Shown here: positions 35,417-47,614 of the stretch, piece by piece
Numbering within the stretch: position 1 is the stretch's first letter
Layout: every line of letters begins with the position of its first letter
Assembly (NCBI GenBank): GCA_043800705.1
Contig: JAZDMS010000010.1
Span: 32,001 to 96,000 of the forward strand
Reading direction: 5' to 3'
DNA: 64,000 nucleotides
Source: Candidatus Altiarchaeota archaeon
Lineage (GTDB): Archaea; Altiarchaeota; Altiarchaeia; IMC4; SCGC-AAA252-I15
Program-made: the position numbers and the translations under genes
Notes under the pieces: model-generated
Seen by the model: the letters and a program-made list of their open reading frames with translations, nothing else
Told to the model about the DNA's origin: nothing
Databases searched by the model: none

Positions 35417-36136
35417 CTACTGGACGACGATCCCGCCGGCGGAGAAATCCATTGTGTGATTGCCTGCGTTTATCCTAGTCTGGCGCATCTTCTCCACAAG
35501 GGCGCTCCTTATCACGTCGTTGCCGACGTTCACCTTGTTGAAATAGATCAGCCCATCGCAGACGAACTCGCTGACCTCGTCCCTCCCCCCATCGGGCCCC
35601 ATCTGCTCGGAGATGAGAAGAGTCGTGACACCCAGGGACTTGATCTTCGACAGGATGTGGTACACGGTCTGCCGCCTCAGCTGGTATGCGTCCAAGGGGA
35701 CCTTGGAATGCAGGTCCATCGACAGCTCCACGAGCCTCGTCTGCTCGGTGTCCTCGAGGATGTTAGTGTAGACCGACAGGACTGAGAGGCTGTCGATGAC
35801 CAGGCGCCTCGCCTTCTTCGCCGCCACCTCATCCCTCAGATACCCCATGAAGCTCTGGATGTCCTTGTGCTTGATGGACAGAAGCGAAAACAGCTTCTCG
35901 TTGCGGATGTCGCTCCACCCGAACTGCTCCGCCTGCTTGATGATGTCCTCCCGAAACTGCTCGAAACTGACGTAGATGCCAGGCTCGCCATTCTTCACAC
36001 CCTCATGGATGAACTGCAGCCCCAAGATGGTTTTGCCAGTGCCCGGCAGGCCCGAAACCAAAACATTGAATCCGACCGGTATGCCGCCCTCAATAAGATC
36101 GTCCAAACCCCCAACACCGGTGGAAACACGCTCCAT
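35417..36136 (-). CDS. KaiC/RAD55-like ATPase
   Basis: STGVGGLDDLIEGG, GLPGTGKT, VSFEQ, VIDS, EKMR. Confidence 0.88.
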   Translation of the reverse strand: MERVSTGVGGLDDLIEGGIPVGFNVLVSGLPGTGKTILGLQFIHEGVKNGEPGIYVSFEQFREDIIKQAEQFGWSDIRNEKLFSLLSIKHKDIQSFMGYLRDEVAAKKARRLVIDSLSVLSVYTNILEDTEQTRLVELSMDLHSKVPLDAYQLRRQTVYHILSKIKSLGVTTLLISEQMGPDGGRDEVSEFVCDGLIYFNKVNVGNDVIRSALVEKMRQTRINAGNHTMDFSAGGIVVQ

Positions 36137-36166
36137 CGAATAGGTATTGGACGACCAAATATTTAA

Positions 36167-36466
36167 CTAACGCGTCCGCCTCCCCTTTAGCGAAGAATTC
36201 TCGGCTGCCTTCCCCCCACTCTCCCCCCCGCCCTTCACAATGGGCCTTGCAGTCTTCCTGCCGGCCTTCTCGGCCCTGCGCCTCTTCTTCTTTTTCTCCA
36301 TCGAATGCTCCAGCATCCGCAGATAGAAGATTATCATGAGAAGAAGCCTCTGCATGGGCGTCGCCTGTATCGCTTTCTTCCTTCTGCCCCTCTTCATCCC
36401 AACCCTCCTTTTGCCCGCCGCTTTTTTGCCCTTCATTCTATCACTGTCAAATATTTTGGAGAACAC
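36167..36466 (-). CDS. Small basic hypothetical protein
   Basis: Lys/Arg-rich ORF with one hydrophobic stretch; start uncertain. Confidence 0.35.
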   Translation of the reverse strand: MFSKIFDSDRMKGKKAAGKRRVGMKRGRRKKAIQATPMQRLLLMIIFYLRMLEHSMEKKKKRRRAEKAGRKTARPIVKGGGESGGKAAENSSLKGRRTR

Positions 36467-36538
36467 CTTAATATCCGTAAAAAACCCGCAGAAACCGCTT
36501 TCCGGCCTTTCTTTAATCCTGGATCATAATATATCCTG

Positions 36539-37438
36539 ATGGCGTCAGTCAAGATACCCCTCCTGTCATCAACACTCTTGAGGAACGCCTCACGGATATT
36601 CATAGGAGTCGGAGACATACTCACCCACCTGTTCCCGAACATGAAGAACATCGTCGAACAATCCGGCGTCAAGGAATCCTACGGCATAAACCACCGCGAA
36701 TACCTCGCCTTCTGCGCGTTCACGTCCCTGCTTATATTCATCGGCCTCGGAGGCCTCATCACCGGCCTCCTGCTGCTAAAACCCGGGTCATCGCCCTCGA
36801 TCGGGCTGATCATAGGCGGGGCCCTGGGCTGCACGTTCTTCATGTACCTCATAGTCTACCCCCAGTCCATAGTCAACAAGCGGGTCAAGAACCTCGAACG
36901 CAACCTCCTGTTCGCCCTGCGCACCCTGCTAATACAGATACGTTCCGGCGTGCCGATATTCAACGCCATGGCGTCCGTCGCCATCGGCAACTACGGGCAG
37001 ATCGCCGACGAATTCAAGCTAGTCGTCGAAAAAGTCAGCGCAGGACGCGACGTCAAGGACGTCCTTGAGGAGATGGCGGTCAGAAACCCCAGCATCTACT
37101 TCAGGCGCGCCCTCTGGCAGATGGTGAACAGCCTCAAATCCGGCAGCGACGTGGGAAAAAACCTCGAAGACGTCATAAAATCCCTCTCGAAGGAGCAGCT
37201 TGTGGAAATCAACAGGTACAAGAGCATCCTCAACCCCCTGTCGATGATGTACATGATGGTCGCAGTAATCGCCCCCTCCCTCGGGATAACGATGCTCATC
37301 ATCCTCTCATTCTTCCCCAACATGGACAAGCTCGCCAACGAAAACATCTTCTGGGGCCTCATGATATGCATCATATTCCTCCAATTCATATTCCTCGGCC
37401 TCATCAAATCCAAGAGGCCGAACCTACTCGGCTCGTAA
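36539..37438 (+). CDS. Type II secretion F / TadC-like pilus platform protein
   Basis: TMs; IQIRSGVP, YGQIADEF, SLKSG. Confidence 0.88.
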   Translation: MASVKIPLLSSTLLRNASRIFIGVGDILTHLFPNMKNIVEQSGVKESYGINHREYLAFCAFTSLLIFIGLGGLITGLLLLKPGSSPSIGLIIGGALGCTFFMYLIVYPQSIVNKRVKNLERNLLFALRTLLIQIRSGVPIFNAMASVAIGNYGQIADEFKLVVEKVSAGRDVKDVLEEMAVRNPSIYFRRALWQMVNSLKSGSDVGKNLEDVIKSLSKEQLVEINRYKSILNPLSMMYMMVAVIAPSLGITMLIILSFFPNMDKLANENIFWGLMICIIFLQFIFLGLIKSKRPNLLGS

Positions 37439-37439
37439 A

Positions 37440-38441
37440 ATGTCCTTCCTGAAACTCCTCGCAAGGGTGCTGCCGCAGGGCATGCGGGAAAAATACTCCA
37501 AAATGGTCGGGTATTCGACGCTGAAAACCAACCCCGACACGTTCATAGGATTCGCCATAACCGCCGGAATCGTCGCGGGATTCCTCCTGACCATCGCCAC
37601 AAACGGGCTAAAACCCCCATGGCCCCTCTCCATGCCCCTCGTCATGTTCACCGTCTCATTTACGGCCATGCAGCTTCTCATCTACATCTGGCTCACCCTC
37701 AACGTCAGCGCGAAAGGGCGCCAGGTCGAGACCGCCCTCCCCGACGCGCTGCAGCTCATGTCCTCAAACATACGCGCAGGCCTCACCACCGACAAGGCCC
37801 TCCTCATGTCCGCCCGCCCGGAATTCGGCGCATTGGAGGAGGAGATCAGGCGCGTGGGCAAGGAGACGATGGCGGGCAGAAACCTCACAGACGCCCTCTC
37901 CAGAATGACGCTGCACATAAAATCCACGGACCTGTCACGCACAGTAGAGCTCATAACCAACAGCATAAAATCCGGCGGCCAGCTCGCGGACCTGCTCGAC
38001 CAGACAGCGGACGACCTCAGGGACCAGCAGATCATCCAAAAGGAGATAAGCGCGAGCGTCCTCATGTATGTCCTGTTCATATTCATAGCCATAGCCATCG
38101 GAGCCCCCATGCTCTTCGCCATGTCCTCATTCCTCGTCGACCTACTGGCCAGGAACATGGCGATGATCTCCAGAGAAATGCCGAAAAACTTCGACGGCGC
38201 AGCCAAGATGCCGATAAAGATGACCGGCCTCAGCATCAGCACCGAATTCATAAAACAATACGCAGTAATATCCATCTCAATCTCCTGCATTATGGGCGCC
38301 ATGATCATGGGCCTCATACTCAAAGGCGAAGAAAAAGAAGGATTCAAATACGTCATCATAATGCTCCCCCTCGCCCTGATAATCTTCTTCGCCGCATCAT
38401 GGGGCCTCGAAATGACCATAGGCGGAATGATGCCGCGCTGA
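37440..38441 (+). CDS. Type II secretion F / TadC-like pilus platform protein
   Basis: LPDALQLMSSNIRAG, EFGAL, KSGGQLADLL. Confidence 0.9.
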   Translation: MSFLKLLARVLPQGMREKYSKMVGYSTLKTNPDTFIGFAITAGIVAGFLLTIATNGLKPPWPLSMPLVMFTVSFTAMQLLIYIWLTLNVSAKGRQVETALPDALQLMSSNIRAGLTTDKALLMSARPEFGALEEEIRRVGKETMAGRNLTDALSRMTLHIKSTDLSRTVELITNSIKSGGQLADLLDQTADDLRDQQIIQKEISASVLMYVLFIFIAIAIGAPMLFAMSSFLVDLLARNMAMISREMPKNFDGAAKMPIKMTGLSISTEFIKQYAVISISISCIMGAMIMGLILKGEEKEGFKYVIIMLPLALIIFFAASWGLEMTIGGMMPR

Positions 38442-38525
38442 CGCGCAGAGGGCTACCCCCTCATTTTTTTGGATTGTAGGCCCCCCTTTTTTTAGCGAGT
38501 TTCGTCGTAAGGCAGCTCCAACCTT

Positions 38526-38650
38526 TCGGATAACATTGGGATTAAGCGAAGTCTGCGGAAGGACTGTCTATTCCTGACGTTTGCGCAGATTTGGGGCGCA
38601 GAGCACCCGACAAGGGTCCGAATGCGCCCGCTTAATCCCGCGTTATCCGA
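38526..38650. repeat. attC-like site A
   Basis: TCGGATAAC-ATTGGGATTAAGCG ... CGCTTAATCCCGC-GTTATCCGA with two internal hairpins. Confidence 0.85.
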
Positions 38651-38697
38651 CCGAGCCCGACAAGGGCGAGGCTTGAGTTTTCGAACTGCCCCTATAC

Positions 38698-39075
38698 TTA
38701 GATAGTTATCTTTTTTTCGATTTTAATATTTTCTCCAGCGTGAGTCTTGATGATGGTATTGAATTCATCTAAATCTTTTGTTATAAGATTTGTCCGCATA
38801 TATGCAACTTGACTGCTTTCTCTTGTTAACTTCAAATCATATGGTCTCATTCCCCCATTAGATAAAAAGACACTACGAAGGATTTCTATTTTATCAAAAT
38901 CTTTCCACGCATAGAATTTATCTGGTTTGATACAATGAATTCCAGTAGAATAAACTTTAAAATATGGTTCAAACGGTTCAAAAATAAAGTTTGTTTGTAA
39001 TAACACTCTAAGTATGTTGTGCTTCTTAGGTTTATCTTCATAGACTAAACTGCCACGTTCTTTTACATCTATCAT
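38698..39075 (-). CDS. Cassette gene: hypothetical 125-aa protein
   Basis: AT-rich ORF filling the A-B cassette. Confidence 0.7.
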   Translation of the reverse strand: MIDVKERGSLVYEDKPKKHNILRVLLQTNFIFEPFEPYFKVYSTGIHCIKPDKFYAWKDFDKIEILRSVFLSNGGMRPYDLKLTRESSQVAYMRTNLITKDLDEFNTIIKTHAGENIKIEKKITI

Positions 39076-39126
39076 GTAGGTTATTGCAATTTCATTAAAA
39101 AGAGTTGTCTGGCAGCTCGAAAATTG

Positions 39127-40331
39127 ATACTATGTAGGGTTCTTGCCTTTTGCCGTGTAATGCGGCTAAAGGAGGAGTATTAAGGAGTATTATGGAGAAC
39201 CCTACGGTTTATCTTGGATGTGATGCGCATAAAAAAGAGTGCGTTTTCTGCGGTTTGAATGAGGAAGGCAACCGTGTTTGGGAGGGTAAAACGCCCACAT
39301 GTTTGGCGGGATTCGAGTTTGTCAAAGGCAAACTCGAAGGCTATATTGTCAAAGTCGTGGTTGAGGCGGGAGGTTTCGTGTGGAAGATTACGGACTTATT
39401 CTCGGAGGTCGGTTTCCAGGTGTACGTGTGCAACCCCTCAAAGAATCCCCAGATCGGTTTGAGCAGGAAGAAAACCGATAAAGAAGATGCATTTAAGTTA
39501 GCTGATCTGCTTCGGGCGGGGTATTTGAAATGCATCTATATCCCCACGAAAGAGCAGAGGGAGTTGCGGTCTGTAAGCAGGGACAGGCATAGTCTTGGTC
39601 GATTGCGGGGTAGGCTGTTGACTCAGGCACGCACTGCATCGTATGAGCATCAGATAGAACGTCGCAAAAGGATCATTGAATGCGTAGATGATGAAATCAA
39701 GAGTCTGAAAAAAGAAATAACAGCGAATGCCGGGAAAAATCCGAGCATTCGGCTTTTAGACTCAACTCCTGGAATAGCGGAGTACGGGGCTAACCTAATC
39801 GTTGGGGAAATATGCACTATAGACCGGTTCCCCACCTGCAAACAGTACATCGCCTACTGTGGGCTGGTGCCGTCGGTACGTCAGTCGGGGAATACCTTGC
39901 ATCTGGGTGCGATAAGGAAGGATTCCAATCACCGGTTGAAGTGGGTGTATACCCAGTCTGCTTGGATAGCGGTAAGGTGGAATCAGGAACTCAGAAGATT
40001 ATACGATCGGAAAGCTCGGGAGAGGGGGAAGAAGAAGGCGATTATTGTTGTGGCGAAGAAACTCGCCACAAGGAACTATTGGATGCTCAAAGAAAACAAA
40101 ACATACCAGGAACTGGTAGCCGCTTTTATCCGAATAGGCTAATCAAGCCTTACAGATTGTTTGCGGATCAGATCCCTGGACGGATCAGTACAGTAGGCTA
40201 ACCAAGCCTGAATGGTTGAATGTCGGAAGACGACTCACAAAGTACTGACCACGAAAAAAGAAACAAGTAAAATTCTGGAAGGTCTTATTATAGCGGCAGC
40301 CCTATACACATACCAGGCAAGAACCCACATG
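39127..40331 (+). mobile_element. IS110/IS1111-family insertion sequence 1, abutting attC-like site B
   Basis: Subterminal IR GGGTTCTTGCCT (39137-48) and AGGCAAGAACCC (40315-26); about 170 bp 3' non-coding end; ends uncertain by a few bp (core TG or AT). Confidence 0.85.
39192..40142 (+). CDS. IS110-family transposase (bridge recombinase)
   Basis: DEDD RuvC-like residues LGCDAHK, VVEAG, KTDKEDA; YCGLVP..RQSG catalytic serine region. Confidence 0.93.
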   Translation: MENPTVYLGCDAHKKECVFCGLNEEGNRVWEGKTPTCLAGFEFVKGKLEGYIVKVVVEAGGFVWKITDLFSEVGFQVYVCNPSKNPQIGLSRKKTDKEDAFKLADLLRAGYLKCIYIPTKEQRELRSVSRDRHSLGRLRGRLLTQARTASYEHQIERRKRIIECVDDEIKSLKKEITANAGKNPSIRLLDSTPGIAEYGANLIVGEICTIDRFPTCKQYIAYCGLVPSVRQSGNTLHLGAIRKDSNHRLKWVYTQSAWIAVRWNQELRRLYDRKARERGKKKAIIVVAKKLATRNYWMLKENKTYQELVAAFIRIG

Positions 40332-40334
40332 GTT

Positions 40335-40456
40335 TCGGATAACATGGCAGGTAACCGAAGTTCGCCGAAGAAACGTCGCCAGACTGACAATTGGGCGAAT
40401 TTGGGGAACCACGGACCCGCAGGCAGAGAATTCCCGCTTAGCCGTACGTTATACGA
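40335..40456. repeat. attC-like site B
   Basis: TCGGATAAC..GGTAACCGAAGT ... ATTTGGGG ... CGCTTAGCCGTAC-GTTATACGA. Confidence 0.82.
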
Positions 40457-40517
40457 GGCGAACCGCAGTGAGCCCGAGCCCCTGAAAGGGGCGAGCGTGC
40501 CTGCCAAGTTTTTTTTG

Positions 40518-40988
40518 TTATTGTTTTAGTTTGATATACCCTTCAATTAGTCTTAGGACTTTTACTTCTCCTTCCCTGTTTAGTGGTTTTTGGACGTATT
40601 CATTTGCGCCAATTCTAGGTCTCTCTTCATCTGACGGTAGTCTACCTGACAACATTATTACTACCTGGTCACCGTTGGATGTTTTCTTTATATCTGGAAT
40701 AACAGTATCCCCAGACATTCCTGGCATTTCTCTATCACACACTACAACATCATACTTCTTTGGGGAGTACTTTTCAAGACCATCCATACCGTTAGCGGCT
40801 AAATCAACATCCCAACCTTGTCGCACCATAATCATTTGGAGTCGATCACGCAATATCTCATCATCATCTATTAAAAGAATCTTTGGTTTACTCACTCTGG
40901 CACTTAAATGTGGTTGGAGTTGACGCACCTCTCCTAAGCTTATCTTATCTGCTAAAGGATTTCTGGTTGAAATATGCTGCGTGACCAT
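40518..40988 (-). CDS. Cassette gene: stand-alone response regulator receiver (CheY-like)
   Basis: ILLIDDD, AANG, VVCDREMPGMSG, MLSG, QKP. Confidence 0.88.
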   Translation of the reverse strand: MVTQHISTRNPLADKISLGEVRQLQPHLSARVSKPKILLIDDDEILRDRLQMIMVRQGWDVDLAANGMDGLEKYSPKKYDVVVCDREMPGMSGDTVIPDIKKTSNGDQVVIMLSGRLPSDEERPRIGANEYVQKPLNREGEVKVLRLIEGYIKLKQ

Positions 40989-41214
40989 GTTATTAGATAT
41001 AATAATGAAAACTATTTAACTTGGCAGGCATGTCGTATAACATCGCGGGTAAGCGAAGTTCCCGCGATGGACTGCCTCTGACCCACTTTTGGCGGGAATT
41101 TGGGGCGCCGCGTACCCGGCAAGGGATCACGAACGCCCGCTTAGCCGCATTCCTTAGAACTTTTTCTTTTGGCTGTGTGTTTACATTTTATTAGTCCTCT
41201 ATCTTATTAATCTT

Positions 41215-41364
41215 TTGAGGGCATGGGGCTGTTCCACAATCGTTCCTCGGCGCTCACTGGGCGCAATTTGGTAAGTGGTAAACGGAGCCCCCAATCACGT
41301 TACAGAAGCTTCAGCCTCGGGTGAGGTTGGCTTAGCGGCTAAACGGGGGTGCCCGTGCCCTCAA
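41215..41364 (-). ncRNA. Predicted bridge/seek RNA of IS element 2
   Basis: Closing stem TTGAGGGCA/TGCCCTCAA; two internal loops whose strands match the target (CGTTTAGCCGC, TAACGTG) and the donor junction (TACCA, AGGAACG). Confidence 0.78.
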
Positions 41365-41386
41365 CTGAAGTAAAGAACTTAATCTT

Positions 41387-42376
41387 TTATGCCACCTCCC
41401 TGTATGGTTCCTGGTTGGTGAGCATGTGCCAGATGATGGTCGCCATTTTCCGGGCGGTGCTTCTTCTGGCGGTTTGCATGCCTTTTCTTTTTTGGATTTT
41501 GTAGTAGTGTTTCATGAATCTTGTGTCGATTGTTGCAGCTTTCCCGGAGGATTCGTAGAGTATCCATTTGAGCCATTTGTTGACTGCGTGTTTTTCTACG
41601 GTGTGTTCTTTGCTGCCGGATTGGTAGATTCCGGGGCATAGTCCGCAGTAGCTGATGAGGTGTTGGGGTGTTTTGAATCGTTTTATGTCTCCGATTTCCG
41701 CCAGGATGAACAGGGCTGAGTATTCAGCTACTCCGGGCAGGCTCATCAGCAAACTTGTTTGATGGTTGCTGCGGCTTATTTTTTCTATCCGGTTTTTGGC
41801 TTCTTGTTCTTCGGCGTGTACGGTGTCGTAGACGTTCAGGAGGTTGGTGGTGTTCTGGTCCTGGTTTTGTTTTTTGAAGGCTGTTAGCATCTTTTTTGTC
41901 CAGAGGTTTTTGGGGCAGGTTTGACCTTCCCGAATGAGATTCGTCTTTATTTTGGTTTTTACCTGTGTTTGTATCCTGGTTATGCTGCTTTTGTGTCTGC
42001 ATAGGTCTCGTAGTTTCTGTGTTTCTTCGCCGGGTATGTAGACTTCGGGCAGGTAGTTGGTTCGCAGCAGGTCTGCGAGTATTTTGGCGTCGCCCCAGTC
42101 TGTTTTTTTGTTTGCGGCAAGTTGGTGTGTTTTTAGGGGATTAGCTAGTTTGACTGTGTATCCGAGTGTTGTTAGGTTTCTGTATGCTGGTCGCCACATT
42201 CCGCAGGCTTCTACGGCTACTGTCAGATGGGTGTTAGGTATCCCTGTCACGAACCGTTCAACAGCGTCTTTTCTGGCGGGGAATTCATTCTCCCGAACGA
42301 CTTTTCCCCTGGCATCCATGATGCACCCGGTGTACTTTTCCTTGTGTATGTCCAACCCGCAAAACAACTGATCCAT
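41387..42376 (-). CDS. IS110-family transposase (bridge recombinase)
   Basis: CGLDIHK, AVEACG, KTDWGDA, YCGLCP..YQSG; SD GGAGGTGA before ATG 42376. Confidence 0.93.
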   Translation of the reverse strand: MDQLFCGLDIHKEKYTGCIMDARGKVVRENEFPARKDAVERFVTGIPNTHLTVAVEACGMWRPAYRNLTTLGYTVKLANPLKTHQLAANKKTDWGDAKILADLLRTNYLPEVYIPGEETQKLRDLCRHKSSITRIQTQVKTKIKTNLIREGQTCPKNLWTKKMLTAFKKQNQDQNTTNLLNVYDTVHAEEQEAKNRIEKISRSNHQTSLLMSLPGVAEYSALFILAEIGDIKRFKTPQHLISYCGLCPGIYQSGSKEHTVEKHAVNKWLKWILYESSGKAATIDTRFMKHYYKIQKRKGMQTARRSTARKMATIIWHMLTNQEPYREVA

Positions 42377-42506
42377 ATTTTTCACCTCCCCGGGGCTTAT
42401 AGACGGTAATAAGCCCCATAATAAACTATTTGCCTAAAGAAAAAGTTCTACTACCATCACGTTATGCGCCCCTGGGCGACAAGCCCAGGGTTCGAAGCCC
42501 AAAATA

Positions 42507-43121
42507 TTATTCTGTAAAAGAATGATTCAAGATATAGTCAGCTGGCAATACTTTCGACTCATCTTCATTATACCAGAAGCACTGTTTTTGTTTGCTATAG
42601 AAAGAGCTATTCATGTTGCAGCATATATTACAGCAAACATAGGAGTGATCAGGGATTTTAGTGACATAAAACTTTTTGAAGGTGTCATATCCGTCTTTTT
42701 CAAATTCACCAAAGAAACCCGTTACGTTAAACGGTTTAGCTCCGAAATACACTAATTTGCTGGTTTCCCTAGTCAGGCAGTTATCTGTTTTCATGTCCCA
42801 GAGGATGACGTCGTTATCCGCAAATGTGCAACTTTTGAATTTCGACTTTCTTGCTACTGCTGTTATATTCTCAATTCCAGCAGAAATTGTTTCAGTCCTA
42901 TTCGATATCCTTATAGGATACTCTTCAGAGGGTTCACAATTGAAGATATACCATCCATGGTAGTCGATAACTTTAGGGATCAAAGATAAATTCACTTGAA
43001 TAGTACTTGTAGAAATTGAGGATAATCTATGTGTCGTTGAAGTAATTCCTTGATTTGTGTCCGAACCAATACACCCACAAAAGAGTAATACCAGGGTTAA
43101 TGAAGGCAATATTTGATTCAC
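42507..43121 (-). CDS. Cassette gene: predicted lipoprotein/secreted Cys-containing protein
   Basis: Hydrophobic N-terminus ending LLFCGC, followed by a Ser/Thr-rich linker. Confidence 0.7.
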   Translation of the reverse strand: MNQILPSLTLVLLFCGCIGSDTNQGITSTTHRLSSISTSTIQVNLSLIPKVIDYHGWYIFNCEPSEEYPIRISNRTETISAGIENITAVARKSKFKSCTFADNDVILWDMKTDNCLTRETSKLVYFGAKPFNVTGFFGEFEKDGYDTFKKFYVTKIPDHSYVCCNICCNMNSSFYSKQKQCFWYNEDESKVLPADYILNHSFTE

Positions 43122-43201
43122 ATTTATCTATACATCCTCTAGCAATAAAATCGTTTGGGTCGTTTGGGCTTCGAAAGTCAGTTCGCCGCAGCGAGCCGAT
43201 T

Positions 43202-43328
43202 GCGCATAACATTGGGGCTAAACGAAGTCCGCCGAGGAAACGCCGCCAGAGTGACTTTTGGGCGGATTTGGGCAACCACGTACCCCGACAAGGGGCAGAG
43301 AATTGCCGTTTAGCCCTGCGTTATCCGA
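43202..43328. repeat. attC-like site D
   Basis: GCGCATAAC-ATTGGGGCTAAACGAAGT ... CGTTTAGCCCTGC-GTTATCCGA. Confidence 0.85.
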
Positions 43329-43401
43329 CCGAGCCCGGCAAGGGCGAGGCAAGCCCCTCCAAAAGGAGGGGCGTAGAGTCGCGGAGGGGCAATAGTTCTT
43401 A

Positions 43402-44289
43402 TTATTCCCTTAGCCGTAATCTTTTTTGATTTGTCTCGATTAATCTCAATCTTCTTTTTATTCGAGTCTGAGGTATTTGATTTCTTAGGAATATCATACC
43501 CTCATCAGTCAGTCTCCCAGCTTCTCTCTCACTAGGTTCTTGTAGATATCCCCGTCGTAAATATTCCTCTTCTGTCTCAATAATTTCTTTTTTAGTTTTT
43601 AGGGGTGGTTTTTGGACTGATAATACTATCACTCCATCAATACCGTATCCATCCATAAAATCAATGAGAGCAAGCTCATACGTACTATATAAACGTAATC
43701 CCCGAAAGGTCGATGCTGTATCTGTTAATGACTCCATATAAGGATTTTCTCTCCATCTTTGACAAAAGTAATTTTTACTTAATTTAAATAATCTCCAATA
43801 ATCTTTAATTCTTTTTTCATCTCTATCCAAAATTCTACTTTTTAGATGTTCATTTATAACAACACTATAATAGATCGGACTGATTACGGCAAGGGCAGAA
43901 TGAATTAATTCGTGTTCTAAGCTGTTTGTTTCATGTACTAGCTTTTCTGGCCCTTTGGAGTAAGGATAATCCGCCACACTGATAAGGTTATGGGTGAGAG
44001 AATAGCGTCCACCAACACTTTTCTTGTGTTTTATTGAAATCTGTAATGGTAATAACTCTTCAATAGGCACTTCCCAGATTTGTGATATTCGTTGAAATAA
44101 ACTTCTAACTATTGGAGTCATGTTTTCCAATCTAAACTTTCCACCCTCCTCCGGAACAATCAATAAACCATATGTCCTATCAGTCAATGAACGAGTATCA
44201 TACCCTTCCCAAATCTTTGGAAAAGAATCATTAAATCTTTGGTGAAATTCTTCAACCCGTTGGTCCTTATTTTTTTTCTTAATGTGCAT
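43402..44289 (-). CDS. Cassette gene: hypothetical protein with HExxH (HELIH) zincin-like motif
   Basis: GGRYS..NLISV..LEHELIH; ATG 44289 lies about 30 nt after a TATATA box. Confidence 0.7.
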   Translation of the reverse strand: MHIKKKNKDQRVEEFHQRFNDSFPKIWEGYDTRSLTDRTYGLLIVPEEGGKFRLENMTPIVRSLFQRISQIWEVPIEELLPLQISIKHKKSVGGRYSLTHNLISVADYPYSKGPEKLVHETNSLEHELIHSALAVISPIYYSVVINEHLKSRILDRDEKRIKDYWRLFKLSKNYFCQRWRENPYMESLTDTASTFRGLRLYSTYELALIDFMDGYGIDGVIVLSVQKPPLKTKKEIIETEEEYLRRGYLQEPSEREAGRLTDEGMIFLRNQIPQTRIKRRLRLIETNQKRLRLRE

Positions 44290-44340
44290 ACACACCAATA
44301 AGATATCTGAACAATGACTATATATTGCCCCTCCGTGATT

Positions 44341-44412
44341 TCGGATAACACCGATTACCCGCAATTGTTGCGGGTAATCGCTCTTTTGGGCTGGTTACCC
44401 GCAGTTATGGGC
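44341..44412. other. Atypical terminal recombination site E (short attC-like or attI-like)
   Basis: TCGGATAAC, perfect hairpin CGATTACCCGCAA-TTG-TTGCGGGTAATCG, third TTACCCGCA copy, GTTATGGGC. Confidence 0.55.
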
Positions 44413-44494
44413 ATTATTTTTCCGATGCTCTGTGGGCCGTGGTTTTGGTCTTTATCGTTGGGGTTTTATATTCGCCGGCCGCCTTTTTCTTTGT

Positions 44495-44677
44495 ATGGAA
44501 TGCAGGAGGGCCTTGAATTTGAAGGCCTGCAATTGCACGTATCCGTGTGAGCGGAGGGGTTTGTGTTGCGAGTGCGTGGCATATCATCGGAAGCGGAATG
44601 AGCTGCCGGCCTGCTATTTTGATAAAGATGCTGAGAAGTCGTATGATCGGAGCATTGAGCGATTTATGCAAGGCTAA
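44495..44677 (+). CDS. Small Cys-rich protein (DUF6485-like)
   Basis: [31 protein letters not shown]. Confidence 0.75.
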
Positions 44678-44710
44678 GGCCGAAAATTGAGGACTAAAGA
44701 TGTAATCGGG

Positions 44711-45367
44711 TCAGTCTTCGTCTGTGCAGCAGCATTTTCTGCTGTGTTCGCTGCAGGGGCCTTTGGTGAGCGGCATCTGTATGTCTGGGGAGGTGCAGTT
44801 GTAGTTGGTGCAGTAGAATATGCCGTATCCTTCGTCGTCGCAGGCAAAGTCGCATTCGTTCAGGTATTTGGTTATGCAGCGGCCGTATTCGCACCTTTCA
44901 TAGATGTCGCAGGCTAATACGGCTGTGTTCTTCGGCTTGCCGAGGCAGTAGCTGTCCGGGTGGCCGCGGTTCACGCACGTATACGTCGTCGAGTAGTTCC
45001 ATATCGTGTTCCCCTTGCATTTGAGTTCCGATACGACTAATCCGCCGCAGTCCGCTTCGGAATTGCAGCGTTTGCCTTTGAGGGTCGTGGTCGTAGTGGA
45101 TGACGTGGTCTCTGATGACGATGTAGTGGTCGTGGATTCTGTCGATGTCGTCGTCGAGGTGGTAGTGGTGGACGACGTGGTGGTCGTGATGGTGGATGAT
45201 GTGGTCGTGGTCGTCGACGAAGTCGGCAGGACAATGTACCATACGCTGTTGAGGACGGCTTCGGCTGAATTCACGAATAGGGCCGAGGGGATTAAAAGCA
45301 GCAGAACGAGCATTATGCCCATTATTGCGACGAGGGCCGTCATGACGGCCTCTTCCTTGGCGACCAT
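44711..45367 (-). CDS. Membrane-anchored Thr-rich, Cys-rich surface protein
   Basis: N-terminal TM, poly-Thr/Ser stalk, Cys-rich C-terminus. Confidence 0.7.
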   Translation of the reverse strand: MVAKEEAVMTALVAIMGIMLVLLLLIPSALFVNSAEAVLNSVWYIVLPTSSTTTTTSSTITTTTSSTTTTSTTTSTESTTTTSSSETTSSTTTTTLKGKRCNSEADCGGLVVSELKCKGNTIWNYSTTYTCVNRGHPDSYCLGKPKNTAVLACDIYERCEYGRCITKYLNECDFACDDEGYGIFYCTNYNCTSPDIQMPLTKGPCSEHSRKCCCTDED

Positions 45368-45463
45368 GGTACTTTATCCCGTCCGGAATATATTAATCGC
45401 TCTGTGTATGGGCGGTTTTTATACTCTGGCTCGGATTTCTATCCATCAGAGGTGATTTGTAAT

Positions 45464-45892
45464 ATGGTTAAAGCATCTATCGGTAAGAGGGTCGTGGCGT
45501 ATATTATCGACAGCGTCCTCGTAGGCGTCATCGTGGGCGTTATCATCGGCGGGGCGATGGTGTTGTCCATCGTGCTGGCTTCGATGAGCGACTCGTTGGG
45601 GGCGATGTCGATGATCCTGTCGTTCGGGGCGATGGGCATATCCATGATTCTGGCGTTCGGCTACTTTCTAGTCCGGGACGGGATGGGCTCGGGCAGGAGC
45701 GTCGGAAAGAAGCTGATGGGCTTGAAGGTCATGAAGGGCGGCAGCCCGTGTTCGTACGTCGATTCGGTCAAGAGGAACATAACATTCATCGTTCCCATAC
45801 TGGGCATGATCGAGCTGATTATGCCGTTCGTCGACGCGGAAGGCCTCAGGTTCGGGGACAAGATTGCGAACACGAAGGTAGTGGACGCATAG
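45464..45892 (+). CDS. RDD family membrane protein
   Basis: KRVVAYIID, GRSVGKKLMGLKV, RFGDKIANTKVV. Confidence 0.88.
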   Translation: MVKASIGKRVVAYIIDSVLVGVIVGVIIGGAMVLSIVLASMSDSLGAMSMILSFGAMGISMILAFGYFLVRDGMGSGRSVGKKLMGLKVMKGGSPCSYVDSVKRNITFIVPILGMIELIMPFVDAEGLRFGDKIANTKVVDA

Positions 45893-45935
45893 GCGTCCAC
45901 TCCCCCTATTTCTTTTATTACTCTCATACTCTATT

Positions 45936-46415
45936 ATGGTTTCCGCATCCGATGAGAGGTTCATGCGTAAGGCGATAGAGGTCGCGAAGAAGGGGATAGA
46001 GGCCGGCCAGACCCCGTTCGGCTCATGTATAGTCAAGGGGGGCCGGGTCGTTGCGGCGTGCCACAACACCGTTTGGGGCACATGCGACCCCACAGCCCAC
46101 TCCGAGGTCAACACAGTCAGGGAGGCGTGCAGGAAGCTCAAGAATATCGGCCTGTCCGGGTGTACCATATATTCGACGACGGAGCCGTGTCCGATGTGCT
46201 TCAGCGCATGCCATTGGGCGAAGGTCGGCAGGATCGTCTACGGGGACGGCATACTCGATGCGCAATCGGCGGGGTTCAACGAGCTCACCATCTCCAACAG
46301 GAAGATGAAGTGGGGCGGGGACAGCCCCGTCGAGATAGAGGGCGGCGTATTGAGGAAGGAGTGCAAGGAGCTGTTCGAGGAATGGGCTAAGAAGAGGAAG
46401 TGTAGGACCTACTGA
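45936..46415 (+). CDS. Nucleoside/guanine deaminase (cytidine deaminase fold)
   Basis: PFGS, DPTAHSE, EPCPMC. Confidence 0.88.
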   Translation: MVSASDERFMRKAIEVAKKGIEAGQTPFGSCIVKGGRVVAACHNTVWGTCDPTAHSEVNTVREACRKLKNIGLSGCTIYSTTEPCPMCFSACHWAKVGRIVYGDGILDAQSAGFNELTISNRKMKWGGDSPVEIEGGVLRKECKELFEEWAKKRKCRTY

Positions 46416-46813
46416 TTGTTCCGCCTATGGCGTTGTTTCGGGTTGTATGTCTAGCTTTCCTTGGAGAACAGGAACCATGCTTCGCTGGACAGATTTAGCC
46501 TCTTCTCTTGAAGGTTCCTCGTCCCCTTAGCTAGCTGATACGTCAGTCCCCTGATATTTAAATATAATCCCGATGGTTAATCTAATGGAAAGATAGAGGA
46601 AACCAGGTTGGATAAAGTTGGGGCTTGACCGTAAAAAAGATGAAGAGCTGATTAATAAGATTCTAGGTGAGATGGAAGAAACAGGGGATGTCAAAGCCAT
46701 TGTTGTGTTCGTAACCGGAGAAGTAAAAAATTTCCAGAGCCAAAGACCATAAAGGAGGAAAAAAAAGAAATAATATCACACTTGGGGTAATCAAATCCCC
46801 ATAATTATAGTCG

Positions 46814-47614
46814 TCATGCAGTCTTATCCTCTCCCGGAGTTGGAGCTATGAATCCGTCAACCTTGACTCTTCCGCCGTATTTGTCTGCGAGGTGCTCTAT
46901 CTCACCTCTGAGTTTTTCTACCGAAAAGGTGTCATCCTGCGGGTCGCCGATGGCCACAACCATGTAGGGGTCTTCTTTTGTCAACATTTCTCCAAATCCA
47001 TGGGGCCCCATTGCTATTGAGATGCTGATCTCTATCTCCTGCCTGGCATATTCGTAGTGTTTCTCCAGGTATCTCCTGCTTATGACAAATCCGGGCGGTA
47101 GGCCTCGGGATTTTGCGCAGTCGAATCTGCCGCTGCCATCATAATATGTGATCCTAGCGATATGTCTCCCCTTTGGCCTTAGCATGTTTTTTCCTAAGAT
47201 AAGGCCTTTGTAGTGCACATCCAGGGCTTCAGCCAGCTTTTTTGACCATTCAACACCATATTTGTCTGTTATGTTGCATTCAAGACCTGCGTTTTTTGCG
47301 TATATTCCGCATGCGCCGCAGCCTTGATGGGCTGTTACACCTTCCACTTCAGCGTCACGTAAGACGTCCACTGTTTTGTCTAATCCAAGGAGTATGCCTT
47401 GTCCAGCCAACCTAATCCCTCCAGGAGTTCCCTCGTCTATGCAACGTACAACCCGGTCAGAGCGGATAAATGCCGCAGATAAGTCTCGAAGACTCAGAGA
47501 ATAGGCTGAAAAACCCTCGGCATATATCCTCCTATACATGCCCTGTTGTGGCCTCCAATTCATCCTCTTCACTTCGTGTATGCTGTGGCCACGGGTTCTA
47601 CTTGAGTTATCCAC
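46814..47614 (-). CDS. Hypothetical protein with CxD and HxxC metal-binding motifs
   Basis: RCIDEG and TAHQGCGA; lower GC than flanking genes; start uncertain. Confidence 0.65.
   Translation of the reverse strand: MDNSSRTRGHSIHEVKRMNWRPQQGMYRRIYAEGFSAYSLSLRDLSAAFIRSDRVVRCIDEGTPGGIRLAGQGILLGLDKTVDVLRDAEVEGVTAHQGCGACGIYAKNAGLECNITDKYGVEWSKKLAEALDVHYKGLILGKNMLRPKGRHIARITYYDGSGRFDCAKSRGLPPGFVISRRYLEKHYEYARQEIEISISIAMGPHGFGEMLTKEDPYMVVAIGDPQDDTFSVEKLRGEIEHLADKYGGRVKVDGFIAPTPGEDKTA

Follow-up and report, generated by a model that had tools for sequence, protein, structure and literature searches.

The attC sites at which integron cassettes recombine are usually regarded as simple hairpins whose pairing goes no further than the R box, and software and models have been built accordingly. 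Sedentary chromosomal integrons, such as those carrying the Vibrio cholerae repeats (VCRs), have species-specific attC families, and another use of folded DNA is found in integrative mobile elements exploiting Xer (IMEX) of the CTX-phi type, in which a single-stranded forked hairpin is integrated at dif by the Xer recombinases of the host. The present study concerns a window of 64,000 nucleotides (nt), i.e. the whole stretch of DNA that was analysed, from contig JAZDMS010000010.1 of a Candidatus Altiarchaeota archaeon (assembly GCA_043800705.1; this genome is labelled G000 below); coordinates given without a contig name are positions in this window. An AT-rich stretch at 38.5-44.4 kb (GC content of 0.41-0.48 per kb against about 0.55-0.62 for the window) holds what is, to judge by its sequence, an archaeal integron-like cassette array composed of four attC repeats of about 125 nt, four AT-rich cassettes, two IS110-family insertions and a dif-like attI site. 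Each cassette is bracketed by an inverted repeat of its own, and the two arms of this repeat probably form a basal helix, P1, within the multi-way fold that an extended recombination site would adopt as single-stranded DNA on the + ('bottom') strand.

In several respects the system resembles canonical integrons. Canonical attC (R''-L''...L'-R') folds into a hairpin on the bottom strand, with its crossover at G|TT. Here too the attC sites are imperfect palindromes with a conserved AAC/GTT, they separate tandem cassettes and show R''/R' and L''/L' pairing, and the bases past the crossover are complementary to the inverse core found in the cassette to which they belong; folding is better on one strand, the genes lie mostly on the complementary strand and the array ends at an attI-like site. 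The differences are that the R box, of 7 bp in canonical attC, has 9 bp here and is followed by a junction and then by a further helix of 12-13 bp, that the whole site would be a multi-way junction of about 200 nt, that each cassette has its own promoter and that the associated recombinase is without the IntI-specific domain. The likeness to Vibrio VCRs lies in the presence, within one genome, of highly similar attC sites of about 125 nt, which accompany unrelated and mostly unknown genes as well as toxin-antitoxin cassettes, some of them reversed; we know of no report of an outer cassette-specific helix in VCR-type attC families. As in IMEX of the CTX-phi type, an Xer-family enzyme without dedicated integrase domain, a folded single-stranded partner and a double-stranded dif-like partner would be associated, but here the element consists of arrays of many small cassettes with a conserved attC family instead of a phage genome, and the AAC box lies 3-4 nt outside the palindrome. 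The dif-like partner is an 11-5-11 palindrome beside a xerA-like gene; G000 has three such sites. The dif format described in PMC8371274 is 11-6-11, i.e. two inverted arms of 11 nt and a 6-nt spacer. In the Acinetobacter pdif modules, according to the abstract of PMC6449649, genes are likewise bracketed by inverted elements and moved by Xer recombination, but there the brackets are conserved Xer binding sites, whereas here they vary in sequence, keep their length and lie outside the recombinase boxes.

A sequence-only reading of the window had presented the feature as possibly undescribed. Full-text literature searches, together with passages of PMC9668308, PMC5371416, PMC4792948 and PMC8371274 (subscription journals and supplements being outside their scope), agree with this, since they yielded no outer cassette-specific helix, nor a multi-way attC junction or arrays served by an XerA-like enzyme. 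A larger conserved attC fold, with an outer helix made from the two ends of the cassette, in genomes of the DHVE2 group and of Pacearchaeota as well as in this one, would change what counts as 'the site' to be cloned and tested for these cassettes; the arm signature would also provide a sequence marker of cassette boundaries in archaeal genomes.

Paired arms at the ends of the cassettes

The four inverted repeats reported by the sequence-only reading were found at their positions, with 12/13, 13/13, 13/13 and 13/13 pairing and sharp ends. The offsets re-derived from the sequence are also those it gave, 7, 7, 3 and 7 nt from the stop codon and 35, 29, 41 and 33 nt from the start codon, the last value being that for an ATG at 44289 derived by hand (the longest open reading frame (ORF) of cassette 4 begins upstream, which gives 24 nt). 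The fourth pair lengthens to 16 bp with one G.T. When the whole genome was searched with nhmmer, contig C37 proved to contain two additional attC sites and contig C21 to begin with an incomplete one, with four further cassettes (three and one, respectively), each having its own inverted repeat; an inverted repeat pair is thus present in 8/8 cassettes of the genome. Scores of matched flanks ranged from 10 to 15 for these eight cassettes against a maximum of 11 among 56 mismatched flank pairs, and one matched score (10) is under that maximum.

The consensus fold of the attC sites comprises 42 pairs, 15 of which show compensatory changes. A covariance model was built from five attC sites. Among 101 related genomes (a set that covers all 61 genomes of the class) it detected related sites in 14, G000 included, and in 26 collected loci it gave 49 matches at E <= 1. 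Model R1 gave 0 matches in 52 bacterial recombinase loci, and no arrays were seen in the three of these loci that were inspected. Thirty-eight cassettes were pooled, namely the eight of G000, 22 between-hit intervals in relatives, four cassettes of a Pacearchaeota contig and four array-terminal ones. The median score of their matched flanks is 22, against 14 for 1406 mismatched pairs (Mann-Whitney p = 3e-18); 23 of the 38 lie above the 95th percentile of the mismatched pairs and 13 above the 99th. An anchored inverted repeat, defined by a score >= 18 and an arm R at most 8 nt from the next attC, is present in 25/38 cassettes, while equally good repeats occur in only 0.74% of 2985 random G000 intervals. 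In addition to these 25, cassettes w3 (the third of the window) and r13 have a small hairpin between arm and R box. Flank duplex energies, which are noisy, lie under the 5th percentile of the mismatched pairs in 18 of 34 cases, with a strand comparison of 21 versus 12. Chance as the origin of the repeats is ruled out by the comparison of matched with mismatched flanks and by the random-interval control. The recurrence of such repeats in homologous archaeal attC arrays, at the same offsets and with covariation, which the earlier reading had proposed as a check, is supported, the offsets by the anchored repeats and the covariation by the counts given below. At the level of sequence, the repeats are genuine and occur generally in this attC family, and the structural reading of them is well supported.

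In the window, the attC layout is found on the + strand of the four repeats: TTNNNN-ATAAC ... GTTAT-NNNN, an L-box pair and a branched centre. The features are as follows, 'P1 arm' standing for an arm of the proposed helix and aa for amino acids.

38524-38652, +: attC a1 (R'' TTTCGGATAAC ... R' GTTATCCGA), the final attC in the array, scoring 137.6 bits with model R1; folding (bottom) strand: +
38651-38677, +: linker with GA hairpin (CCGAGCCC-GACAA-GGGCGAGG), then junction TTGAG ahead of arm L of cassette 1
38678-38690, +: P1 arm L, cassette 1 (TTTTCGAACTGCC)
38698-39075, -: payload ORF, cassette 1, 125 aa, no Pfam or PADLOC family; payload GC 0.30
39111-39123, +: P1 arm R, cassette 1 (GGCAGCTCGAAAA), 12/13 with arm L
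39131-40331, +: IS110-family insertion sequence (approximate ends; transposase ORF 39150-40142), between arm R of cassette 1 and the R'' box of attC a2
40333-40458, +: attC a2
40498-40510, +: P1 arm L, cassette 2 (TGCCTGCCAAGTT)
40518-40988, -: payload ORF, cassette 2, 156 aa, response-regulator receiver domain (PF00072, E 3.9e-18)
41018-41030, +: P1 arm R, cassette 2, 13/13; then TGTCGTATAAC
41031-41149, +: attC a3, 5' part; the 3' part (C GTTATGCGC) restarts at 42460
41150-42459, -: second IS110-family element (transposase ORF 41387-42385), one base ahead of the GTTAT of attC a3; terminal inverted repeat
42491-42503, +: P1 arm L, cassette 3 (TTCGAAGCCCAAA); hairpin CCCTGGGC-GACAA-GCCCAGGG just before
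42507-43121, -: payload ORF, cassette 3, 204 aa, no family found
43163-43175, +: P1 arm R, cassette 3, 13/13; a small hairpin at 43176-43201 separates it from the R'' box
43200-43330, +: attC a4
43331-43381, +: linker with two hairpins (CCGAGCCC-GGCAA-GGGCGAGG and GCCCCTCC-AAAA-GGAGGGGC) and GTAGAG junction
43379-43394, +: P1 arm L, cassette 4 (TCGCGGAGGGGCAATA); perfect 13-bp core at 43382-94
43402-44289, -: payload ORF, cassette 4, 295 aa from the ATG at 44289, no family found
44323-44338, +: P1 arm R, cassette 4
44339-44403, +: array-terminal attI-like/dif-like site, with R box TTTCGGATAAC (44339-49), palindrome GATTACCCGCA-ATTGT-TGCGGGTAATC (44353-79) and direct third copy GGTTACCCGCA (44393-403)

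Anatomy and predicted fold of the extended site

The anatomy was counted on 27 well-anchored cassettes and points to a fixed position of the arms. The promoter-side arm (arm R) ends immediately ahead of TT-NNNN-(A/T)TAAC of the next attC, the two T being present in 23 and 21 of the 27. The other arm (arm L) comes after AGAG (20, 23, 21 and 25 of 27 for the successive bases), 20-80 nt past GTTAT-NNNN, and its first base is T in 26/27. One or two small hairpins stand between GTTAT-NNNN and AGAG; they have at least 4 bp in 26/27, and many of them read CCGAGC-loop-GCGAGG and carry tandem G.A mismatches within CGAG/CGAG (14/27). Watson-Crick pairs between the arms number 22-27 out of 27 along positions 1-12, drop to 18 at position 13 and are down to 10-11 over positions 14-16, and all four pair types are present at positions 2-14. 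Since Watson-Crick pairing falls off after positions 12-13, the alignment gives a helix of 12-13 bp, after which pairing stops. With TT on one side, and GA hairpin(s) plus AGAG on the other, between the arms and the R box, a three- or four-way junction is to be expected. Within the attC fold, the R box is set apart from the L box by an internal loop of 3 nt, and a single base after the L box is left unpaired. When the eight cassettes of G000 were compared with all the collected loci (blastn, tblastx), only attC-flank matches and one toxin-antitoxin match were obtained; no homologous cassettes are therefore available for an arm-by-arm test, and covariation rests on the anchored positions and on the arm-related pairs described below.

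The arms do not belong to the gene. The sequence-only reading had tied them to the stop codon and promoter as such, but two opposite-orientation cassettes of this genome, a reversed ParE/antitoxin cassette and a reversed DUF6487 cassette, keep their arms, whose position follows attC. A stop-codon or promoter element was accordingly rejected as an explanation, reversed and gene-less cassettes alike retaining the arms, which on this comparison are part of the recombination site.

Pairing joins the two ends of one cassette. Of 36 cognate cassette-end pairs, 18 are complementary (4/4) at the four outer R-box positions, against 4.1% of 1260 non-cognate pairs and 1/17 for the two sides of the same attC; the variable R-box bases thus find their complement at the opposite end of the same cassette and not inside the same attC, GTT/AAC being the only sequence common to all sites. 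In cassette 2, for example, TCGTATAAC (within TGTCGTATAAC, after arm R) pairs 9/9 with GTTATACGA at 40448. As far as these comparisons go, R-box pairing is the known integron rule, which a second helix here prolongs beyond the R box. Between the window and C21, as well as among five DHVE2-group loci, the sequence is shared from AAC onward and divergent upstream of it, which would place the crossover at ATAA|C; a crossover there puts the two P1 arms, like the two NNNN segments of the R box, at opposite ends of one cassette. To judge by its attI-like end, and by the homologous site found upstream of the recombinase gene (see below), the array lies upstream of the recombinase, so that the - strand of the window would be the 'top' strand of the cassettes and the + strand the folding 'bottom' strand. 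Strand specificity is seen in several respects (the attC cores and the mismatches in the arms, taken up below with their limits, point the same way): linkers, which were not selected by the model, are more stable on the model strand in 23/27 and less stable in 2, and the ORFs lie on the strand opposite to the folding strand in 15 of 20 single-ORF payloads versus 5 on the folding strand itself.

Folding was predicted with DNA parameters, the circular junctions being reconstituted for cassettes w2, w4, c37_6 and c37_7. The predicted structures combine P1, the R box and attC core, and the hairpin(s) into multi-way junctions, as had been anticipated for circularised cassettes in single-stranded form. 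Their predicted energies are -44.2, -59.3, -46.1 and -49.1 kcal/mol, respectively, against -32.9, -45.8, -42.2 and -39.6 kcal/mol for the same attC with its array neighbour, i.e. the circular junctions would be more stable by 3.9-13.5 kcal/mol. One earlier idea must be corrected here, namely that of a stem prolonged by the arms, with promoter and ORF as its loop: the folds support this geometry in a single-stranded circle, but the stem is not continuous, a conserved junction intervening. For linear single strands of 836-1231 nt (the cassette and both sites), the predicted optimum also has the arms paired 13/13 and the downstream ATAAC paired with the upstream GTTAT, and forbidding the arm pairing would cost 6.5-16.7 kcal/mol.

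The fold we propose would read, from 5' to 3', P1 5' arm (12-13 nt, promoter side), TT, R box (NNNN-ATAAC), attC core, R box (GTTAT-NNNN), GA hairpin(s), AGAG and P1 3' arm. In the integrated double-stranded array the arms would simply bracket promoter and ORF; on a single strand they could pair with each other, which would close the recombination module and leave the gene in a loop. Neither P1 nor the cognate R-box extension could form other than between the two ends of one cassette, either in an excised single-stranded circle or across the payload, and we infer that the fold arises in vivo in one of these two settings, the latter being that of a single-stranded array. The recombinase acting on the arrays is probably an XerA-like enzyme without the IntI insertion. 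For such an enzyme P1 may turn the R-box side into a regular duplex and mark the cognate ends of a cassette, while the TT/AGAG junction and the GA hairpins are probably recognized, or else stabilize the fold.

A number of points weigh against this reading. Eleven of the 38 cassettes have weak arms only (7-10 bp, with mismatches or a bulge), and in about three of the 38 (r0, r15 and r17) no arms are visible. In 37/40 attC cores the model (+) strand has the more stable fold, but this asymmetry is partly built in, the sites having been chosen by a model of that strand. Mismatches in the arms are of the G.T or G.A type in 10 cases and of the opposite type in 2, a weak asymmetry (p = 0.04) in which tandem G.A pairs are not independent events, and under a stricter penalty the figures are 5 versus 1, which is not significant (these are anchored counts, used instead of the unanchored count of 22 versus 18, which is polluted by AT-rich extensions). 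Energy minima of single strands of about 1 kb are unreliable. In an array, cognate pairing would compete with canonical attC folding and could either promote or block excision. Finally, archaeal Okazaki fragments are short, and arms that are 400-1000 nt apart would seldom be on one exposed strand at the fork.

Recombinase and attI-like sites

G000, whose assembly is 87.55% complete, has a single tyrosine recombinase gene of family PF00589 (C17:175-993, locus L003), encoding a protein of 272 aa. The protein scores 168 bits to TIGR02249 (cut-off 265); neither with the integron-integrase model nor with that of XerA does it reach the cut-off. Its best match is XerA of Pyrococcus abyssi (4A8E), with which it aligns end to end, and it has 33 aa where Vibrio IntI4 (2A3V) has 78, i.e. 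it is without the IntI-specific insertion. An integron integrase above the curated cut-off was found in 0/101 related genomes, G000 itself being 87.55% complete, so that an unassembled intI is possible there. Among the listed matches to the integron-integrase profile, all cover positions of about 1-182 or about 225-315 and none spans the interval of about 183-224, the genes with two matches being split there. According to the abstract of PMC4792948, integron integrases have a specific domain for the single-strand pathway, and PMC9668308 gives only six IntI genes for 539 attC sites in archaeal integrons. Many recombinase genes of the related genomes are within a few hundred bases of a contig start, as is expected with repeats upstream.

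A site composed of an AAC box and a palindrome is found upstream of an XerA-like gene on C17 of G000 and at loci L054, L047-L053 and L126. Cassettes of the architecture described above abut this recombinase-adjacent site in L054, L047, L051 and L126; the Pacearchaeota contig has four cassettes, the arms in DHVE2-group contigs are of 14 and 11 bp, and a further case is the complete genome G026. The three dif-like/attI-like sites of G000, at 44339-44403 of the window, at 745-815 of L002 (C21) and at 90-170 of L003 (C17), each combine an AAC box with an 11-5-11 palindrome, whose arm recurs once more in direct orientation; the arm GATTACCCGCA is common to two of them, and the third has GTTAAACGCA with compensatory changes. 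Only the L003 site adjoins the recombinase gene. About 60-100 nt downstream of the palindrome are similar at the three sites, and the next genes differ: a DUF6485 protein, a NifU-like protein (assigned by eye) and the recombinase. From these associations it is likely that the XerA-like enzyme serves the arrays. The position of arrays beside an XerA-like recombinase without IntI domain bears on the origin, from Xer enzymes, of the single-strand recombination carried out by integron integrases.

Payloads, arm families and rival explanations

Single-ORF payloads are compact, in this genome and in its relatives, with mostly 24-43 nt from arm to start and 2-17 nt from stop to arm. The GC content of payloads is 0.24-0.43, against 0.53-0.58 for contigs of this genome. 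No match to PADLOC defence families was found among six cassette proteins. The reversed cassette at 1919-2388 of C37 (L001) encodes a ParE-family toxin (PF05016, E 3.8e-08) and a small upstream partner with a weak DUF7557 match; a homologous ParE pair is carried by a cassette of G015, with different arms. A short cassette of 351 nt (L037 233-585, G011:C1) has a left arm like that of C37 cassette 5 and a right arm like that of window cassette 2, and these arms do not pair; it may be a chimera, or the product of a deletion between two cassettes.

The earlier reading had described the four pairs as unrelated and private to their cassettes. The sequence does vary from cassette to cassette, but 'unrelated' goes too far, as 11 cassette pairs share at least 9/13 in both arms, with compensatory differences. 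Payload homology was detected by tblastx in 0/11 of these arm-related pairs, and two payload-homologous cassette pairs have unrelated arms. The w3 cassette and a cassette of G011, from another genus, share AGGGTTCGAAGCYCAA and TTGGGCTTCGAAAGTCAGT, arms and adjoining bases being nearly identical, and the proteins they encode show no relationship (best blastp E 0.57). Gene-less cassettes, in which the arms enclose a loop of 50 nt, adjoin the attI-like site in two distant genomes, at L054 (5903-5975, Pacearchaeota contig) and at L126, a locus of a complete genome belonging to the same taxonomic order as this one, where the loop of the cassette (reverse strand, upstream of the recombinase gene) itself prolongs the hairpin (TTTTCGGG / CCCGAAAA). 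No target-site duplication was found at the payload borders, the mean longest direct match being 4.0 versus 3.8 in controls. Related modules with unrelated genes, together with empty modules, make cassette genesis approachable by comparison and bench work.

These observations suggest that the arms could mark cassette making: a gene-less module of attC and P1 would pre-exist and genes would enter at the apex of P1, or genes would be captured together with a palindromic target. The exchange of payloads between related arms, the empty modules beside attI, the trimming of payloads to a minimal promoter and ORF and their low GC content all speak for such an origin, yet we consider it rather unlikely. 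A passive scar would decay, whereas the helix keeps its length, its compensatory pairing and a conserved junction; target-site duplications are absent; and similar sites with unrelated genes are the norm in chromosomal integrons and need not mean entry at P1. It is moreover compatible with arms that form the P1 helix, and not exclusive of it. A broader scenario is possible, although we hold it only tentatively. The system would be an Xer-type 'proto-integron', with an XerA-family recombinase without the IntI insertion, a dif-like attI and sites that are three-way single-stranded DNA junctions; P1 would frame the module, unrelated genes would sit at its apex, the gene-less modules would represent the state before capture, and module and payload would have separate histories. 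If true, this would give a testable handle on cassette making and on the rise of integron recombination from Xer recombination.

The arms might also regulate the state of the array, P1 and the R-box extension forming across the payload in a single-stranded array and either joining attC sites for excision or locking the cassette in place; P1 would then not exert its effect in the circular form. The predicted linear optima, in which arms and R-box halves pair across the payload and resist separation, are consistent with this, and in bacteria the frequency of excision depends on the attC-attC distance on the lagging-strand template (PMC5371416). The basis is, however, thermodynamic prediction, and the effect could go in either direction. 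Long single-stranded stretches may be rare in archaeal replication, and on balance we are doubtful of such a regulatory role. Pairing of the arms in a transcript, e.g. as a processing stem or for translational control, would fit the G.U and tandem G.A pairs, which are common in RNA too, but one arm is at or outside the TATA box, and thus absent from the cassette's own transcript, the favourable strand is antisense to 15/20 single-ORF payloads, the arms stay in place when the gene is reversed, and no Rfam match was obtained at E <= 1 in 36000-47000 of the window; an RNA element is highly improbable. Equally little credit can be given to terminal inverted repeats of small transposons or invertible segments. 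The repeats do bracket a gene-sized segment, and the orientation of the payload varies (15 versus 5), but the arm sequences differ between cassettes, which contain no transposase and show no target-site duplication, and the position of the arms is fixed relative to the attC boxes.

Some minor features of the locus may be added. The same IS110-family element, or its end, is found one base ahead of GTTAT in three attC sites of the genome: it is complete at 41150-42459 of the window, cut by the contig end at 1-137 of C21 (L002) and reduced to a left-end remnant of about 50 nt at about 3745-3790 of C37 (L001). This element looks like an archaeal counterpart of the attC-targeting IS1111 group of insertion sequences. 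The IS110-family element at 39131-40331 is a different one, with subterminal inverted repeats ATGTAGGGTTCTTGCC / GGCAAGAACCCACAT seen by eye. Just beyond the array, at 44711-45367, lies an ORF of 218 aa, rich in Thr/Ser and in Cys, which contains short tandem DNA repeats and has a weak mucin-like match under the Pfam cut-off.

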